8,021 bases of DNA from a virus. Its lineage: Monodnaviria; Loebvirae; Hofneiviricota; Faserviricetes; Tubulavirales; Inoviridae. The DNA lies in IMG/VR virus record IMGVR_UViG_2695420487_000001, positions 1-8,021 of that record. One strand, given 5' to 3'. The notes under the pieces were generated by a model that did no database searches, was not told the DNA's origin, and was given only the letters and a program-made list of their open reading frames with translations. Each line of letters opens with the position of its first letter. The first letter of the stretch is position 1. The position numbers and the translations under genes were made by a program. Positions 1,301 to 8,021 of this stretch are shown piece after piece.

Positions 1301-2353
1301 ATGATCGACTGGTTTACCGGAATTCTTCCTTGCACACACCGACCGTTACCGGCCGGTAGTGTCGTCAGCGTTGATGCTGACGGTGCAGTGGAGTGGGAAA
1401 CAGTAAAGCGGTTGACCGTTCGCGGTTCATACGAATCCACAATGAAAGTACGATCTGTTGGATCAGACGGGGAGGGCCGGGCAACTCATCTTTATATTGA
1501 CGGAAATCCGTCAAAATTTCTTCAGGGGCATTCTGTTATTGGCTCCGATGATTTGCAGGGGCTGGTATTAACCGCTTACGCAAGAATATTGGCATTACTT
1601 CATATTCCTCATGATCTACCATCCTATCGTCAGGTAATGGCAGGGCAATTTAAGATCTCACGCATTGATATTAACTACATGTATTCATTATCAACGCTGG
1701 AAAATGTCCGCGCATGGCTATATGCCGCAGAATTCAAGGCTAAAACTCGCCATGGTCGCGCCTGTGGTAAAGGTGGAACTGTTTACTTAGGGAAAAACTC
1801 CCGGCGGTGGAGCCTGAAATTTTATTCAAAATATGATGAGCATATTTCTGGTAAAAAAGGACACCAGATAGCAGAAGAGTTTGTTAAAGCTGGCTTACTT
1901 GACTGGTCTAAAGATAAATTACGAATTGAATTGACGCTAAGAACAACAGAATTAATTGACTTAAACCTTACGCTTGGCAGTAACTGGAATATCGATACTC
2001 CAAACAAATTATTCTCTGAATATGTAGGGAGAATAGAAATGAATCAAAATGCCATTTTGACCGATGAAAAAATAGTTAAACTGCCGAGAAAAATACAATC
2101 AACATATTTACTGTGGAAGCAGGGCGCAAACATGAAAGAAATGCTTCCAAAGCCAACATTTTACAGGCACCGAAAAGAATTATTGTCTTTCGGGATAGAT
2201 ATTAATTTTTATTGTGAATCCCCTGATTCAAATAATGTTGTTCCATTAGTAAGAACACTTGAAGCTAAACCAGCCCAAATCCCTACATGGGTTTATGAGA
2301 AAGGTTTTATTTTTGATTACAACCGTATTTCACATGCCAGTAACTGGCATTAA
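1301..2353 (+). CDS. gII: Replication initiation protein pII (rolling-circle nickase, Phage_CRI-type), 350 aa
   Basis: Starts MID... like fd/M13 pII. Conserved blocks recognised from memory of M13 pII: KFLQGHSVIGSDDL vs KVLQGHNVFGTTDL, KISRIDINY vs TISRIDATF, NNVVPLVR near the C-terminus. It is followed by the gV/gVII/gIX/gVIII block as in Ff/IKe. Confidence 0.9.
   Translation: MIDWFTGILPCTHRPLPAGSVVSVDADGAVEWETVKRLTVRGSYESTMKVRSVGSDGEGRATHLYIDGNPSKFLQGHSVIGSDDLQGLVLTAYARILALLHIPHDLPSYRQVMAGQFKISRIDINYMYSLSTLENVRAWLYAAEFKAKTRHGRACGKGGTVYLGKNSRRWSLKFYSKYDEHISGKKGHQIAEEFVKAGLLDWSKDKLRIELTLRTTELIDLNLTLGSNWNIDTPNKLFSEYVGRIEMNQNAILTDEKIVKLPRKIQSTYLLWKQGANMKEMLPKPTFYRHRKELLSFGIDINFYCESPDSNNVVPLVRTLEAKPAQIPTWVYEKGFIFDYNRISHASNWH
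2039..2353 (+). CDS. gX: pX-like protein from in-frame internal start within gII (C-terminal 104 aa of pII)
   Basis: ATG at 2039 is in frame with gII, and MNQNAILTDE aligns with the M13 pX start (MNIYDDSAV) by position within pII. Inferred by analogy only. Confidence 0.45.
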   Translation: MNQNAILTDEKIVKLPRKIQSTYLLWKQGANMKEMLPKPTFYRHRKELLSFGIDINFYCESPDSNNVVPLVRTLEAKPAQIPTWVYEKGFIFDYNRISHASNWH

Positions 2354-2364
2354 AGGAGCGTGAT

Positions 2365-2682
2365 ATGTCTAATTATGGTCTTTTTGTAAAAGGTAAAATG
2401 CTTGGTGCTCGTCAGCGTAATAAAGTCAATGGTCAGGGCTATTACAATGAAATTGGTATCGGTTTAGAGATCCCTGATGGTTTTGGCGGTACTAAGCAAG
2501 ACCAAATAATTATTCGTGTATCACAGTCCCTTGTGAACGCCGGAGTCATGAATCAAGCCAATAGTTTTACGGGGAAATTAGTTCAAATCCCTGTATATGT
2601 TCGTGTCTGGTCAATGGAGGGTAGAGAAGGTGTGACTTATAATATTTCATCAGATGGTGGGATCACTGAAATAAAAGGTTAA
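2365..2682 (+). CDS. gV: Putative ssDNA-binding protein (gene V position), 105 aa; not obviously similar to fd/IKe pV
   Basis: Intact ORF with a strong AGGAG Shine-Dalgarno 8 nt upstream. It occupies the gene V slot between gII and gVII. Function is assigned from synteny, not from sequence similarity. Confidence 0.55.
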   Translation: MSNYGLFVKGKMLGARQRNKVNGQGYYNEIGIGLEIPDGFGGTKQDQIIIRVSQSLVNAGVMNQANSFTGKLVQIPVYVRVWSMEGREGVTYNISSDGGITEIKG

Positions 2683-2684
2683 TT

Positions 2685-2771
2685 ATGGATGATGTTATTC
2701 AAATATTAATAGCATCCGGCATTGTTATTTCTTTTGGTCTTGGTGCTATTACCGCAGGTGTCATTCGTTAA
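2685..2771 (+). CDS. gVII: Minor coat protein pVII-like, 28 aa
   Basis: Small hydrophobic peptide MDDVIQILIASGIVISFGLGAITAGVIR. It starts 3 nt after the gV stop and its stop overlaps the next start (TAATG), as in Ff phages. Resembles M13 pVII (…IQISVVLCFALGIIAGGQR). Confidence 0.6.
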   Translation: MDDVIQILIASGIVISFGLGAITAGVIR

Positions 2772-2866
2772 TGTATATTGTGTATTTCTTCGGGGCTTAT
2801 ACCTTAGGATTTGCCCTTTTCTATGCGGTCGGTTCGTTTAAAACATTATCTGACCGATTAATGTAA
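2771..2866 (+). CDS. gIX: Minor coat protein pIX-like, 31 aa
   Basis: MYIVYFFGAYTLGFALFYAVGSFKTLSDRLM. AGGTG lies upstream and the start overlaps the gVII stop. Position and size match Ff pIX (…YFTRLM…). Confidence 0.6.
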   Translation: MYIVYFFGAYTLGFALFYAVGSFKTLSDRLM

Positions 2867-2895
2867 TAAAACCTAACTTAAATGGAGTTATTTAT

Positions 2896-3138
2896 ATGAA
2901 AGTCATTTCTGTTATTAAATCTAAAATTGCTGTGGCTTCAACCGCACTTTTTGTTTCTGCAAGTTGTTTTGCTGCTGATGGCGCAACGGGTAGCACTGAC
3001 TATGCAGGTCAGGCAATGGATTCACTGCTGACTCAGGCAAACGATCTTATTGCAAAAGTATGGCCTGCTGTTGTCGCTGTCGTTGGTGCGGGTCTTGCCA
3101 TTCGTTTGTTTAAAAAGTTCTCTTCGAAAGCAGTTTAA
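2896..3138 (+). CDS. gVIII: Major coat protein pVIII precursor (signal peptide plus about 54-aa mature coat), IKe-like
   Basis: GGAG 7 nt upstream. Signal peptide ends ...SASCFA. The mature part ADGATGSTDYAGQAMDSLLTQANDLIAKVWPAVVAVVGAGLAIRLFKKFSSKAV closely resembles the IKe/Ff coat (…IRLFKKFSSKAV), with acidic N-terminus, hydrophobic core and basic C-terminus. Confidence 0.9.
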   Translation: MKVISVIKSKIAVASTALFVSASCFAADGATGSTDYAGQAMDSLLTQANDLIAKVWPAVVAVVGAGLAIRLFKKFSSKAV

Positions 3139-3147
3139 AATTCACTC

Positions 3148-3171
3148 AGGGGCACTCGTTGCCCCTTTATT
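3148..3171 (+). terminator. Rho-independent terminator after gVIII (stem GGGGCA / TGCCCC, then TTTATT)
   Basis: 3149-3154 ggggca pairs with 3160-3165 tgcccc and is followed by tttatt. This is the same position as the strong terminator after gene VIII in Ff phages. Confidence 0.7.
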
Positions 3172-3184
3172 AAAGCGGGTTATT

Positions 3185-4428
3185 ATGAAAAGGAAAATAT
3201 TAATTATTTCCGCTATTCTTATTTCTTCTTTTTCACATGCTGATTCATGGGAAAGCATTACTAAATCTACTTTTCAAAGCTCTGCCTATTCTGAAAGTAA
3301 GCAAATAACCAACCAAGATGGCACTAAACAAACTGTTTATTATATTGATGCAGCTATGCAGGCTTCTGCCTGTCAGGGGGCTAAAGACAGTGCTCAGGGT
3401 GTTTTTACTCAGGTTAAACCAACTTATGAGGGAGTATGGCCTAACTCTGAATTCCGTCTTGTGTTTTCTGACGCTTGTACCTACAGCGACTCTCCGGGCC
3501 AGAAAGATAAATACTGGAATTTAACCGCTTATATTATCGGTGATATTCAGCGTTCTATTCCTGATGAAAAACCCTCCGAGCCTACACCTGAAGAAATTTG
3601 TGAAGCTAAACCTCCTGAAGAAGGTGTATTTAATAATGTCTATCTTATGATGGTGATCGTTATATTTATTATAACGGTTGTGAATATGAGGCCACTGGCG
3701 TCATTGTTTGCCAGGGTGATGGCACTGTTTGTGCGGCGACATGGAAGCCTACCGGAACCGTAGCCGATCCTTCAGATAAGCCTTCTTCTCCTGCTGGCGA
3801 TGGTGGGGATACTGGAGGCGGGGATACGGGGGGTGGTGATACTGGAGGAGGTGATACAGGCGGTGGTAACTCAGGTGGCGGTAACTCAGGTGGTAATGGC
3901 TCAAGTATTACCAAAGGAGATATTCAGTCAGCTATTGAAGGTGCTTCACCTAAAATGGCCAGTGAGATTCATGATAAGTTAACAGAAAAAGACACCTCAT
4001 CTGATGATAAAAAATCGGCTGATGAACAGACTAAAAATAATATAAATCGTCTTGGTGACGCTATAAATAACCTTACTCGCGGAGCCGGACGTTTTGCTGA
4101 TCCTTCTGGCGGTGATTCTCGTTATGGGAAAGGGGATTCCGAATTAGACAGTGCTTCAACATTGGCTGAATCCGAATTAGGAATAGCTAAAGATTCTCAT
4201 GGTGCTTTATGGGAAGCATTCCTGAATAAAGGTGCTATGCTCCCTAGTTTACCTAATGGTAATGGTTGTTCTGAACTTGTTATTTTCCCCGGTGAAATTT
4301 ATCAGATTGATATTGAATGCGATAAATTACTTACTATCAAAGATGCGCTTTCATGGATTTTTTATTGCCTTACCTTCTGGTATGTATTTACGTCTTTAAC
4401 CTCATTACTTCGTAAAGGAGGTGAGTAA
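3185..4428 (+). CDS. gIII: Adsorption / minor coat protein pIII, interrupted by a frameshift (N-terminal part in frame 2 to about 3643, remainder in frame 1 from about 3646); pseudogene or sequencing error
   Basis: Signal peptide [19 protein letters not shown]. The span 3185..4428 is 1244 nt, not a multiple of 3. Frame 1 after the shift gives [37 protein letters not shown] (like the fd N1 motif DRYANYEGCLWNATGVVVCTGDETQCYGTW), a Gly-rich linker (GGDTGGG repeats) and a C-terminal domain ending …[36 protein letters not shown] (like fd …CDKINLFRGVFAFLLYVATFMYVFSTFANILRNKES). Frame 1 has no start codon near the shift, so the two parts are one gene. Confidence 0.8.
3796..3900. repeat. Tandem near-identical short repeats encoding the glycine-rich linker of pIII (GGDTGGG x4, GGNSGG x2)
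   Basis: Direct reading: ggtggggatactggaggc / ggggatacggggggt / ggtgatactggagga / ggtgatacaggcggt / ggtaactcaggtggc / ggtaactcaggtggt. The reverse complement produces the spurious proline-rich ORF 3669..3914. Confidence 0.8.
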
Positions 4429-4769
4429 TGCCTTTATTATTAGGTATTCCTGCACTATTGCGTTTTCTTATTGGGCTTGTTCCTTTATTTATTGGCTATG
4501 TGGCAAGCTTCCTCGCACGCCTTGCGACTAAAACAGGATTGATAGCTGTAGCATTAGTTGCATTAATTACAACAACTGTCACTCTCTTAATGCAATATCT
4601 TGCTGAGGTTATGTACAATGGCCTTCCTGCTGATTTTTCACATTTAATTGCATCTGTCTTACCAGACCATTTTCAGGCCTGTGTTAATGTCATTATGATT
4701 ACTCGAATTAGCGTTTTTGTTTTCGATTTAAAACAAAAATTCCTTGATTATGCAAACAAGGTGATTTGA
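4428..4769 (+). CDS. gVI: Minor coat protein pVI, 113 aa
   Basis: [16 protein letters not shown]… resembles M13 pVI MPVLLGIPLLLRFLGF…, and …VFVFDLKQKF resembles …IFIFDVKQKI. Strong AAGGAGGTGA Shine-Dalgarno. The start overlaps the gIII stop and the stop overlaps the gI start. Confidence 0.9.
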   Translation: MPLLLGIPALLRFLIGLVPLFIGYVASFLARLATKTGLIAVALVALITTTVTLLMQYLAEVMYNGLPADFSHLIASVLPDHFQACVNVIMITRISVFVFDLKQKFLDYANKVI

Positions 4770-5864
4770 ATGACGGTTCATGTCGTAACAGGGAAATTAG
4801 GTTCAGGTAAGACACTGGTTAGTGTTGCCAGAATACAGGAAAGACTAGCTAAAGGCTGTCCTGTAGCCACTAATCTAGATATTAAACTACATAATATGCC
4901 CATGGTTGGTCGTTATGCGAAAAAAACACGCGTGATTCGTGTCCCTGACAAACCTTCATTAAATGATCTGCTGGCTATTGGTGTAGGCAATACTTCCTAT
5001 GATGAATCACGTAATGGTCTACTGGTTCTTGATGAATGTGGGACTTGGTTTAATTCCCGTTCGTGGGGGGATAAAGACAGACAGCCAGTTATTGACTGGT
5101 TTTTGCATGCCCGTAAATTAGGCTGGGATATTATTTTTCTGATTCAGGATATTTCGATTATGGACAAGCAAGCACGGCTGGCGCTTGCGGAGCATGTTGT
5201 TTATTGTCGTCGTTCAGATAAGTTAAACATCCCATTTATTGGTTCTTTCATGAATATAATTTCAGGTGCTCGTTTTTCTTTACCAAAGGTTCACTTTGGT
5301 ATTGTTAAATATGGTGACAACGTTAATTCAATAACTGTTGATAAATGGATGTATACCGGAAAGTCATTATATTCCGCCTACAATACAAAACAGGCTTTTA
5401 CTGATAATTATCCGCATGGTGCTTATTCGCTTTTGCCGCCATTTATTACACATGGTCAGTTTTCCGTTAACAAAGGGTTTAATTATTATATGCGCCTCAC
5501 GAAAATTTACTTTCGAAAATCAAACCGATTAATATTAATGCTTTCATTTCTGGCATTGGGGCTTGGACTTGGCTTCTGGCTACAATCTGGTAAGAATGCT
5601 GATGAGATTTCGGCTATTAAATCTGCTCATGCTGAACAGGTGAGGGCAGTAACTCCTGACAGTACCAGCGATTTACCGAGACTATCAATTAATTCCTTCT
5701 CTCAACTTGGTTTTGATGTTTCCGTTACGTTTGTTGATGCTAAGGGTATGAAGTACCAGTATTTTGATTTAATTAAAGATGGTTATTCTGTTGATATTAA
5801 AGATGCCTGCCGAATTGTTATCAGAAAAGGCCGTTATTTACAAAACATCACCTGCCAGGAGTAA
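4770..5864 (+). CDS. gI: Assembly protein pI (Zot-like P-loop ATPase), 364 aa
   Basis: Walker A motif GKLGSGKT at the N-terminus. Long stretches nearly identical to remembered M13 pI (VTGKLGSGKTLVSV, LLVLDECGTWFNSRSW, IDWFLHARKLGWDIIFL, DKQARLALAEHVVYCRR). C-terminal TM segment LILMLSFLALGLGLGFWL. Confidence 0.95.
   Translation: MTVHVVTGKLGSGKTLVSVARIQERLAKGCPVATNLDIKLHNMPMVGRYAKKTRVIRVPDKPSLNDLLAIGVGNTSYDESRNGLLVLDECGTWFNSRSWGDKDRQPVIDWFLHARKLGWDIIFLIQDISIMDKQARLALAEHVVYCRRSDKLNIPFIGSFMNIISGARFSLPKVHFGIVKYGDNVNSITVDKWMYTGKSLYSAYNTKQAFTDNYPHGAYSLLPPFITHGQFSVNKGFNYYMRLTKIYFRKSNRLILMLSFLALGLGLGFWLQSGKNADEISAIKSAHAEQVRAVTPDSTSDLPRLSINSFSQLGFDVSVTFVDAKGMKYQYFDLIKDGYSVDIKDACRIVIRKGRYLQNITCQE
5490..5864 (+). 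CDS. gXI: pXI-like protein from in-frame internal start within gI (codon 241)
   Basis: MRLTKIYFRKS aligns with the M13 pXI start MKLTKIYLKKFS. It is in frame with gI. No obvious Shine-Dalgarno, so expression is inferred only by analogy. Confidence 0.45.
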   Translation: MRLTKIYFRKSNRLILMLSFLALGLGLGFWLQSGKNADEISAIKSAHAEQVRAVTPDSTSDLPRLSINSFSQLGFDVSVTFVDAKGMKYQYFDLIKDGYSVDIKDACRIVIRKGRYLQNITCQE

Positions 5865-5871
5865 TATTATT

Positions 5872-7137
5872 ATGCGTTTATTTTTCATTGCTATCTTATT
5901 CACTTATTCTTTTTGCGTTTCTGCTGAAACTGTTAACCTGAATAATTCATCCGTTCGCTCATTTGTCCAGTGGTATTCATCAAAAACTGGCAAGCCCGTT
6001 ATTGTTAATCCTGATGTTAAAGGAACCGTAACGGTATTTAATGCTGATGTTAATCCCACAAATATTGATAGTTTCTTCAAATCTGTACTGAATGCTAACG
6101 GATTTGTCATGCTTTCGGGTAATCCTGCAGTAGTCTCTTTGCCGTCAAAATTACCATCACAGATGGCGTCAGACCTTGATGATGCTGATATTCGGTCTTA
6201 TGACTCTTTCCCGTCTGAGCCATCTTATCAGCCAGCGCCAGTGGAGTTTACTGTCAGAAATTTTAAGCTGACAAAAGTTCGATCGTCTGATGTTCAGCAA
6301 CTGGTTAAAATTTATCTGGATTCTAATGGCGGGGGTAATGTTGTGGATTATCCTGGCAATAACTCCCTGATTGTTTCCGCACCTGATGAGCTGCTTCCCG
6401 TCCTTTCCGATTTCATCAATTCAGTGGATGTTGCCCGCGATCAGGTTTTGATTCAGTCGCTGATGTTTGAAACCAGTCTGTCGGATGGTGTTGATTTGTC
6501 GTTTGCAGCCGGTTCTGCATCCGGGCATAAAGTAGCAGGGGGCTTTAATACTTCAGCATTGGGTAGCGCATTGTCGACTGCCGGCGGCTCTTTTGGCATT
6601 TTTGATGGTAATGTTCTGGCCGTATCCCTGCGTGCGGTGCAGAGTAACTCCCGGTCTAAGGTGATTTCAACGCCCCGGATTCTTACCCAGTCTGGTCAGA
6701 CAGGCTATATTTCTGTTGGTAAAAATGTACCCTTTATCACGGGTAAAGTTACGGGTGAATCTGCCGGGGTAAATAATCCGTTTCAGACCATTGAACGTCA
6801 TGATGTTGGCGTATCTCTGAAGGTGACGCCTGTTGTTATGGGGAACGGCCAGCTTGTACTTACTATTGATACCCGCGCTGATTCCATCAGCAACGATGAC
6901 CAGGCATCTGATATTATTACGAACCAGCGTCAGATACAGACAACAGTTCAGATTAAGGATGGCCAGACGCTCTTACTTGGTGGGCTGATTGATTCATCAT
7001 CCAGCAATGCTGACCGTTCTGTACCGTTTATCAGTAAAATTCCGGTGATTGGCTGGCTTTTCAGGAGTAAAGCTGACAGTAATGAGCAACGCATTATGTA
7101 TGTTCTGCTGACCGCTCATATTATTCGCGCGCTTTGA
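5872..7137 (+). CDS. gIV: Outer-membrane secretin pIV (phage assembly/export channel), 421 aa
   Basis: Start chosen at MRLFFIAILFTYSFCVSA (signal peptide) with AGGAG about 10 nt upstream; the track ORF start at 5779 lies inside gI. Secretin blocks closely match remembered M13 pIV: VIVNPDVKGTVTVF, SGQTGYISVGKNVPFITGKVTGESAGVNNPFQTIERHDVGVSLKV, DGQTLLLGGL, VPFISKIPVIGWLF. Confidence 0.95.
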   Translation: MRLFFIAILFTYSFCVSAETVNLNNSSVRSFVQWYSSKTGKPVIVNPDVKGTVTVFNADVNPTNIDSFFKSVLNANGFVMLSGNPAVVSLPSKLPSQMASDLDDADIRSYDSFPSEPSYQPAPVEFTVRNFKLTKVRSSDVQQLVKIYLDSNGGGNVVDYPGNNSLIVSAPDELLPVLSDFINSVDVARDQVLIQSLMFETSLSDGVDLSFAAGSASGHKVAGGFNTSALGSALSTAGGSFGIFDGNVLAVSLRAVQSNSRSKVISTPRILTQSGQTGYISVGKNVPFITGKVTGESAGVNNPFQTIERHDVGVSLKVTPVVMGNGQLVLTIDTRADSISNDDQASDIITNQRQIQTTVQIKDGQTLLLGGLIDSSSSNADRSVPFISKIPVIGWLFRSKADSNEQRIMYVLLTAHIIRAL

Positions 7138-7287
7138 TGGGGCCGTGGCGGGTGCGTTAAGCCCCGGTATGGCCACATCAAGAGCCGGATTTTACGTTTC
7201 ACCACGGAGCCTCTATATGGCCTTAAAACTGACAGGATATGAACAGAAAGACATCTTCTAGGTAATTCAATTACTTAGAGGTTTTTT

Positions 7288-7536
7288 ATGTCTGTAAAAA
7301 GCAGGGTGCGCGATCGACTCCCCAGTGGTCGCATGAAGTCTTACCGTCGTGTTAGTTCACATTTTACCAGTTGTTCCAGGTGGTTTGATAAATCACCGTC
7401 CTGGTATCGCAATATGATGATGACCCGGCCAGAGCGCCGTGAAGTCAGAAAGCTTCTTAATCAGGTCTTGCGTGGTCGTGATGCTGACGGTATCGCATTT
7501 CCTGTCAGTAACAAGCCGTTTGCATGGTGGTGGTGA
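7288..7536 (+). CDS. Hypothetical small basic Arg/Trp-rich protein, 82 aa (accessory ORF between gIV and the dif-like site)
   Basis: Intact ORF with GAGG about 7 nt upstream of the ATG. High Arg/Ser/Trp content and the ending …FAWWW; no family recognised. It lies in a segment that looks GC-richer than the phage body. Coding status not verified. Confidence 0.4.
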   Translation: MSVKSRVRDRLPSGRMKSYRRVSSHFTSCSRWFDKSPSWYRNMMMTRPERREVRKLLNQVLRGRDADGIAFPVSNKPFAWWW

Positions 7537-7916
7537 ACTTTTTAGCCGCTAAAATTTAATGCTTACGAAGTTATCGTAAACTCCGGTCAGTGACAAAACT
7601 CGTTTTGTTGCTGTCCGGGGTTGGCCAAGCCGTACAGTTTTCATTTTGAGCGTTATAGCTGATTCGGCGCGGCAGCGTTCATCTTATCTGACATTGTGGC
7701 TGTATTTCTGGGGAAGGTTTCATGTATCAGGTACAGATTTACCAACTGCAACTGGATGAACAGGCCTGATTGGTGAGGTCAGGCCGTTCACTTACTGCTG
7801 ACAGACATTTGATTCTGATTCGTCTGGAGAAACGGATGATTTTGAATCACTGTCGATAGTTGCCAGTTGACGCCAAGTGTCAACGATTCCCGCCAGATTC
7901 TGCCATCCTTACCATT

Positions 7917-8010
7917 GGTGCGCATAATGTACGACTCGTTATGTTGAAAAGGCCGCTGCGAAAATCGAATCCCGCAGCGGCCTCTTTAGCATAACGTCAT
8001 TGTGCGAACC
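7917..8010. other. dif-like XerC/XerD recombination site pair in inverted orientation forming a roughly 94-nt imperfect palindrome (candidate attP / integration junction of an IMEX-type filamentous phage)
   Basis: 7917-7927 GGTGCGCATAA equals the E. coli dif XerC arm 11/11. It is followed by tgtacgactcg and by TTATGTTGAAA (7939-7949; dif XerD arm TTATGTTAAAT, 9/11). An inverted copy lies at 7984-8010: ctttagcataa (9/11 to the reverse-complemented XerD arm), then ttgtgcgaacc (9/11 to the reverse-complemented XerC arm). Between them is a perfect 10-bp GC stem. Confidence 0.65.
7951..7982. other. Central GC-rich stem-loop of the palindrome (ggccgctgcg / cgcagcggcc, 12-nt loop); could also act as a bidirectional terminator
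   Basis: 7951-7960 and 7973-7982 are exact reverse complements. The stem is followed by tcttt on the + strand and ttttcaac on the minus strand. Confidence 0.5.
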
Positions 8011-8021
8011 AAAAATCTCAA

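Follow-up and report, generated by a model that had tools for sequence, protein, structure and literature searches.

Do the replication genes of a filamentous phage share the ancestry of the capsid genes that follow them? This question is raised by an 8,021-nucleotide (nt) stretch of DNA assigned to Inoviridae (IMG/VR record IMGVR_UViG_2695420487_000001), referred to here in its full length as the window. At positions 1301-2682 it encodes a short gene II protein (pII) and, in the gene V slot, a protein of 105 amino acids (aa). The first-pass annotation, made from the sequence letters, proposed that the cassette of repressor, gII and gV had been exchanged relative to the morphogenesis cassette. 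The comparisons with known phages bear this out, with 96-99% identity of the replication and regulation proteins to the phage Ypfphi, against an IKe-like capsid, and with sharp breakpoints between the two. The window is very probably most of a 9.1-kb filamentous prophage of the family Inoviridae, integrated at dif and composed of two blocks of differing ancestry.

Ancestry of the replication module and the capsid cassette

The features on which the comparison rests are as follows. SSB stands for single-stranded DNA-binding protein, and OB for oligonucleotide/oligosaccharide-binding.

626-672, + strand: two adjacent hairpins (stems 627-639/643-655 and 657-662/667-672), candidate plus-strand origin, from conservation and folding
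683-1129, - strand: putative repressor of 148 aa, HTH_3/CI-type, homologue of YPO2273 (RstR-like), from Pfam and identity
1130-1300, no strand assigned: divergent control region between the repressor gene and gII, from a repeat search
1301-2353, + strand: gene II, rolling-circle replication initiator pII, 350 aa, from PF05144 and PF05155
2039-2353, + strand: gene X, 104 aa, internal in-frame start at Met247 of pII, from alignment with I2-2 gene X
2365-2682, + strand: gene V-slot protein, 105 aa, PF17426 "Putative_G5P", predicted SSB-like OB fold, from Pfam, position and AlphaFold2
2685-7137, + strand: Lineavirus-type morphogenesis cassette, from Pfam and identity to I2-2/IKe/UPphi, with the seven genes that follow
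2685-2771, + strand: gVII
2771-2866, + strand: gIX
2896-3138, + strand: gVIII
3185-4428, + strand: gIII, frameshifted in the window
4428-4769, + strand: gVI
4770-5864, + strand: gI
5872-7137, + strand: gIV
7131-7185, + strand: packaging (morphogenetic) signal hairpin, from alignment with the annotated I2-2 and IKe signals
7288-7536, + strand: orf82, Ypfphi/CUS-1-type gene after gene IV, from identity
7917-7949, + strand: imperfect dif-like site, GGTGCGCATAA / TGTACGACTCG / TTATGTTGAAA, read from the sequence

The map of open reading frames (ORFs) shows a plus-strand gene order that is complete for a filamentous phage (gII/X, gV, gVII, gIX, gVIII, gIII, gVI, gI, gIV), with two reverse-strand ORFs upstream of gII. 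Amino-acid identities per gene were obtained by tblastn of the window proteins, and DNA breakpoints by blastn. Ypfphi of Yersinia pestis matches the repressor at 99%, pII and pV at 96% each, and orf82 at 82%. Its locus gives no tblastn match for the window pVII, pIX, pVIII, pIII, pVI or pI, and pIV is 27% identical. In the reverse direction, the Ypfphi proteins of 83, 90, 570, 95 and 341 aa (YPO2276-YPO2280-type genes) have no match in the window. The CUS-1 type, represented by E. coli NC101, gives the same picture with 99% for the repressor, 95% for pII, 96% for pV and 82% for orf82, and its morphogenesis genes compare as those of Ypfphi do. The pattern is different for the lineaviruses. IKe is 51-71% identical in the morphogenesis proteins and has no match to the repressor, pV or orf82, and a single 68-residue match to pII. 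I2-2 is 50-73% identical in the morphogenesis proteins, 57% in pII and 41% in pV, and gives no match to the repressor or orf82.

At the DNA level, Ypfphi-like sequence occupies 604-2690 (89.8%) and 7216-8012 (79-98%), and I2-2/IKe-like sequence occupies 2688-7164. One breakpoint lies at the gV stop and gVII start (2688-2690), on the stop/start motif TTATGGAT that is common to both phage types, and the other lies just past the packaging hairpin (7164-7216). Block A (7216-8012 plus about 604-2690) would thus be a Ypfphi/CUS-1 backbone with orf82, the imperfect dif site, the origin-like double hairpin, the RstR/CI-like repressor, gII/gX and gV, and 1301-2682 would be its enzymatic core. Block B (2688-7164) would be a virion and assembly cassette of the Lineavirus type (I2-2/IKe/UPphi), including the packaging hairpin. 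The window shares with Ypfphi and CUS-1 (E. coli O18:K1:H7) the YPO2273-YPO2275 module, the origin-like hairpins, orf82, the imperfect dif site, the tandem integration at dif and the gene order. It differs from them in the entire virion and assembly cassette, where Ypfphi has its proteins of 83, 90, 570, 95, 341 and 414 aa, and the module DNA is 88% identical.

UPphi phages are dif-integrating relatives of I2-2 and IKe, and in UPphi901 genes II and V have >85% identity to their Ypfphi counterparts and the remaining genes <20% (Shapiro & Putonti 2020, PMC7307601). Of the traits that define UPphi in that study, the window has the Lineavirus-like core genes I-VIII and dif integration, and ECONIH2, a strain named there, gives an 85% identity match. 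A canonical UPphi in E. coli TUM13936 resembles the window in the morphogenesis proteins (82-96% aa identity), pII (88%), pV (93%), orf140 and the dif site beside hipBA, and a colinear alignment over 1302-7140 is 83% identical in DNA. It differs at two places. It has a 60-aa regulator where the window has the 148-aa Ypfphi-type repressor, and two ORFs after gIV (102 and 77 aa) where the window has orf82. These two ORFs, which from their position are presumably h1 and h2, the pair of genes that PMC7307601 gives as common to UPphi, have no significant tblastn match in the window (best E 0.69). In gII-gV, DNA identity is 88% with CUS-1/Ypfphi against 81% with canonical UPphi, and is even over the whole length; a sliding-window comparison found no internal recombination breakpoint in this module, which is uniformly nearer to CUS-1/Ypfphi. 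The window is a rarer recombinant sub-type, in which a Ypfphi-type repressor and orf82 replace the canonical UPphi regulator and the two post-gIV ORFs.

A chromosomal prophage of E. coli SCPM-O-B-12142 is 99.96% identical to the window, with two mismatches and one 1-nt gap. It is present as tandem copies of 9078 nt each, adjoining hipBA. The dif-like site of the window has an exact XerC arm, a central region of 11 nt in place of 6, and an XerD arm with 2 mismatches; behind it, at 7952-7986, lies a GC-rich hairpin. The first 15 nt of the site are found again at the prophage junctions in the compared loci L005-L008 and L010, and the same dif-like sequence also flanks the first prophage copy beside hipA. 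A search of the window with the exact E. coli dif pattern, allowing up to 3 mismatches, found nothing. Tandem copies of Ypfphi likewise meet at an imperfect dif site (PMC4266046). The dif-like site and the tandem prophage beside hipBA therefore identify the element as a dif-integrating inovirus prophage.

Proteins and signals of the two blocks

From its sequence, pII is a divergent yet genuine member of the Ff pII/Phage_CRI family. PF05144 (Phage_CRI) covers residues 1-231 (E 2e-72, 244 bits against a cut-off of 21.7) and PF05155 (G2P_X_C) covers residues 253-335 (E 7e-33, 113.5 bits against a cut-off of 25). Both domains score above the Pfam gathering threshold and stand in the N-to-C order of Phage_CRI initiators. 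The phages of the Ff group (M13/fd/f1) and IKe share these Pfam families, but their pII proteins are 26-27% identical to that of the window, which is 60-70 residues shorter. The first-pass annotation had described pII as about 60 residues shorter than fd pII and conserved in blocks. This description is correct: the protein has 350 aa, whereas M13 pII has 410 aa and IKe pII 421 aa, and the MAFFT identity is 27% to M13 and 26% to IKe. The shortfall is spread over several small gaps and is not a single truncation. The conserved blocks are MIDxxxxxLP, PSKxLQGHxVxGxxDL, RID, SRxxxLxxYxK, LRxE and NNVVPLVR. The alignment column of M13 Tyr197, reportedly the residue that becomes linked to DNA (Asano et al. 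1999), is Tyr in all five proteins compared (window, Ypfphi, I2-2, M13 and IKe). Met247 of the window pII aligns with Met247 of I2-2 pII, the annotated gene X start in the I2-2 record (3829-4125). GGGAGA precedes the gene X ATG, and the PF05155 match falls in the gene X part of pII. It is likely that pX is made from this internal start at 2039. In Ypfphi, disruption of the pII homologue YPO2274 abolishes particle production (Derbise & Carniel 2014, PMC4266046).

Among the non-coding stretches of its region, the double hairpin at 626-672 alone has a match in the intergenic region of I2-2 (52 nt, 84.6%). A core of roughly 40 nt hardly varies among the window, I2-2, Ypfphi, Klebsiella and Brenneria, despite differences of up to 43% among the pII proteins of the window, I2-2, Ypfphi and Brenneria. 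As single-stranded DNA (ssDNA) it folds at -16.2 kcal/mol (z = -4.75). This conservation makes it the likely plus-strand origin, the nick and binding site of I2-2/Ypfphi-type pII. The initiator would nick the origin, probably at these hairpins, and drive rolling-circle replication. In a Klebsiella spallanzanii locus (L007, 4370-8931), which includes a run of N, a 45-nt origin-like element occurs three times.

The 148-aa protein encoded upstream on the reverse strand matches HTH_3 (E 1.4e-9) and Phage_CI_repr (E 1.9e-4) in Pfam. The Y. pestis and E. coli NC101 copies are 99% identical to it, and canonical UPphi has no counterpart. The homologue YPO2273 is RstR-like and a putative repressor (PMC4266046), and a repressor function is putative for the window protein as well. 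The control region between this gene and gII contains a 27-nt inverted repeat at 1175-1231 (81% complementary) with a partial third copy at 1254-1278. These repeats are possible operators. One weak sigma-70-like site is present at 1211-1239 on the + strand.

The gene V-slot protein had been described in the first-pass annotation as lacking visible similarity to pV of Ff and IKe, and the BLAST, Pfam and profile comparisons are all negative in agreement with this. In tblastn, IKe gives no match, and M13 and If1 give short spurious matches outside gene V (E 1.8 and 7.5). PF02303, the family of Ff/IKe pV, is matched neither by the 105-aa protein nor by 59 aligned relatives at E up to 1, and hhalign of its profile against an alignment of M13/IKe-type pV returned a probability of 0.7%, that is, no relation. 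The protein is a member of PF17426 (E 1.6e-51, 173.4 bits against a cut-off of 25; residues 2-104 on profile positions 1-108), as are 59 of the 59 aligned family members. An exhaustive profile search collected 63 cluster representatives of its relatives, and nearly all full-length ones have about 100-120 aa. It is 96% identical to YPO2275 of Ypfphi and 41% identical to the annotated gene V product of I2-2. The protein is thus a homologue of a pV in the sense of I2-2, not in the sense of Ff/IKe. The gene stands directly after gII/X in the window, I2-2, Ypfphi, NC101 and TUM13936.

Ff pV has an OB-type fold. Structure prediction by AlphaFold2 with a Foldseek search, the check that had been proposed for the 105-aa protein, gives an SSB-like OB fold. 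In the model (pLDDT 87, pTM 0.76), strands b1-b3 are followed by short helices and strands b4-b5. The predicted helices between strands 3 and 4 are as in SSB and unlike Ff pV. The best Foldseek matches in PDB are OB domains of bacterial SSBs (E about 1e-5, TM-score about 0.5), and among the named matches in the viral library phage SSBs predominate, one being the ssDNA-binding protein of Thermus phage OH3. Searches of PDB sequences gave no match for the single sequence, and marginal matches for the 59-sequence profile (PrgE, E 0.029; a protease, E 0.067). In our reading, the 105-aa protein would be an SSB-like OB-fold protein that does the job of pV and belongs to a sequence family other than Ff/IKe pV. 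Like Ff pV, it would coat the displaced single strand and deliver it to the assembly machinery. It shares with Ff/IKe pV the slot, a similar size and the predicted OB-type fold, but no detectable homology, so another family of OB-fold proteins would do the pV job. By eye and by tblastn, the 96-aa protein of If1 annotated as ssDNA-binding (L004, 1-291) is unlike both M13/IKe pV and PF17426. Coliphage inoviruses may therefore use three or more families in the pV slot.

The Pfam families of the morphogenesis cassette are the major coat protein, the pIII pilus-binding domain, DUF5455 at the pVI position (51-52% identity to I2-2/IKe pVI), a Zot-type pI and a secretin pIV. In tblastn, the structural proteins are 50-73% identical to I2-2/IKe and 31-54% to M13/If1. 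The first-pass annotation had called pVIII, pVI, pI and pIV very close to Ff/IKe, which is overstated: identity to IKe is 57%, 51%, 65% and 71%, and identity to M13 is 43%, 36%, 53% and 51%, respectively. The hairpin at 7131-7185 can be aligned with the morphogenetic signals that the I2-2 (2260-2330) and IKe (6141-6196) records annotate, and folds at -20.9 kcal/mol (z = -3.4). In sequence, this candidate packaging signal moves together with the morphogenesis cassette. The swap would be tolerated because the packaging signal and the proteins that recognize it lie together in block B, and the origin and its initiator lie together in block A.

At the right end, orf82 is 82% identical to an 82-aa ORF at positions 7153-7401 of locus L006 and to the NC101 homologue, and is absent from canonical UPphi. 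At the left end, orf140 (162-584, - strand) encodes a hydrophobic 140-aa protein for which no Pfam match was found. Canonical UPphi and CUS-1-type prophages have it with 96-97% conservation, and the Y. pestis locus lacks it. An IS1 end occupies positions 1-96 of the window and is 94-98% identical to copies of the element in numerous phage and plasmid records. In the reference prophage, the corresponding point lies between orf140 and a 369-aa reverse-strand ORF, which the window lacks. A megablast of the whole window against the phage collection found no close sequenced phage relative; besides matches to the IS1 end (1-99), the sole match is a 421-nt stretch of I2-2 gene I.

Alternative explanations

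The exchange between blocks A and B has to be weighed against an inheritance in which this lineage underwent no exchange. The module and the cassette would then have descended jointly from an ancestor common to I2-2 and the window, IKe would be the one that swapped, and the mosaic would be an artefact of the comparison with Ff and IKe. I2-2 gives this reading its weight. Like the window, it combines a PF17426-type pV and a short pII with an IKe-like capsid cassette, and shares the Met247 gene X start and the origin-like element. It differs from the window in pII (57%) and pV (41%), and its record annotates no repressor, dif site or accessory ORFs; it is described as non-integrating (PMC7307601). 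All genes fall in one broad band against I2-2 (pII 57%, pV 41%, the others 50-73%), and pII and pV of IKe are as M13-like (60% and 44%) as the other IKe genes are. A similar level of identity to a single known phage across all genes, named in advance as a result that would speak against a mosaic, is nearly reached by I2-2, with 41-73% over gII-gIV. Every gene from gII to gIV is in this range because I2-2 already carries the same module type.

Several observations are difficult to reconcile with such co-inheritance, which is considered unlikely. I2-2 and IKe are 69-93% identical in the morphogenesis proteins and yet have unrelated gII and gV, and on the morphogenesis tree (M13,(window,(I2-2,IKe))) no scenario manages with fewer than two module swaps. 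At least one more must be added because the module occurs with lineavirus-type as well as Ypfphi-type capsid cassettes. The window module is 88-90% identical in DNA to that of Ypfphi/CUS-1, whose capsid genes are unrelated, and it is nearer to CUS-1 than to canonical UPphi, while the capsid block groups with UPphi. CUS-1 also has the repressor and orf82, which canonical UPphi lacks. In Brenneria and Phytobacter, the module is paired with Ypfphi-type morphogenesis genes, and both co-diverge. For the route of exchange, read-through replication between tandem prophages, the CTXphi mechanism, was considered and rejected as a sufficient cause on its own. It predicts junctions at the origin and dif, whereas those of the window lie at gV/gVII and after gIV.

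A separate doubt concerns the 105-aa protein, which might be some other nucleic-acid-binding or regulatory protein occupying the gene V slot. The lack of any sequence or profile similarity to Ff pV, the "putative" function of PF17426 and the marginal PDB profile matches to PrgE (E 0.029) and a protease (E 0.067) would agree with this. The same slot, after gII/X and before gVII, is kept in I2-2, UPphi, Ypfphi and metagenomic inoviruses, in records that name a DNA-binding protein. The size of 100-120 aa is kept over the 63 cluster representatives, the top fold matches of the predicted OB fold are all of the SSB type, and neither the ORF map nor Pfam offers another candidate ssDNA-binding gene in the window. 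A role other than that of pV is therefore held to be quite improbable. A merger of two dif prophages during assembly could also simulate a hybrid, since tandem non-identical dif prophages are common and hard to assemble (PMC7307601). The 99.96% identity to two tandem copies in a complete genome leaves this explanation with hardly any credibility. In addition, of 5426 complete E. coli genomes, 6 independent ones from varied hosts have the diagnostic junction between lineavirus gIV and orf82, with 92-100% identity. The sub-lineage is therefore rare but real, and no product of assembly.

Some points weigh against the preferred reading, that of a hybrid of blocks A and B with a PF17426 protein in the role of pV. 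In comparison with I2-2, gII to gIV are colinear with broadly similar divergence across genes, and part of the mosaic signal could be old and vertically inherited since the common ancestor with I2-2. For the 105-aa protein, a literature search gave no paper characterizing PF17426 and no member with experimental ssDNA binding, and the Pfam name itself says "putative"; the structure model was built on 11 closely related sequences, and the Foldseek TM-scores are moderate, 0.45-0.57 for most matches. Finally, gIII of the window has a 1-nt deletion near 3643 (TATTCTT to TATCTT) relative to the SCPM-O-B-12142 copy, where it is intact with 414 aa. The frameshift is either a real inactivating mutation or a sequencing error, and the window copy that bears it may yield no infectious virions.

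Occurrence and meaning of the probable hybrid

Of the 5426 complete E. coli genomes, 160 were found to have the gII-gV module and only 55 the morphogenesis block; the same module therefore rides with two different capsid cassettes. Two related loci stand on contigs labelled as metagenome-assembled genomes (MAGs) of other bacteria. An enterobacterial UPphi-type prophage is on a contig labelled Candidatus Nanosynbacter (L008), and a near-identical gII-gV module is on one labelled Aerococcus (L012). The presence of both on non-enterobacterial MAG contigs is probably due to binning contamination.

The module swap is real but already described. For I2-2, Stassen et al. reportedly presented the phage in J Mol Evol in 1992 as a composite replicon with an exchanged replication module. 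For UPphi and Ypfphi, the split of gII/gV from the other genes is in PMC7307601. The small additions here are the exact breakpoints, the logic of origin and packaging signal, the prediction of an SSB-like fold for PF17426 and the genome counts per block. There is about an even chance that the window represents a distinct natural hybrid class, not separated in the UPphi paper, in which the full regulation, replication and integration backbone of CUS-1/Ypfphi is placed in a lineavirus capsid. The pIII N-terminal domain of this hybrid resembles that of I2-2/IKe.

I2-2 and IKe are conjugative-pilus-specific phages. If the hybrid class is true and functional, the virulence-associated CUS-1/Ypfphi replicon would switch its receptor through the exchange of a whole cassette, and a pV of a different OB-fold family would work with a foreign assembly machinery. 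The repressor is 99% identical to that of CUS-1/Ypfphi, and the hybrid therefore probably has the same immunity. The structure-based argument suggests that the PF17426 proteins are SSB-like OB-fold proteins that replace the Ff-type pV. Filamentous phages of Enterobacterales swap a self-contained unit of origin, repressor, gII and gV against a unit of capsid, assembly and packaging signal, and the meaning of this is modest and largely one of bookkeeping. The rare hybrid sub-lineage links Ypfphi/CUS-1 and UPphi, and bears on inovirus taxonomy and on the prediction of cross-immunity and host range.

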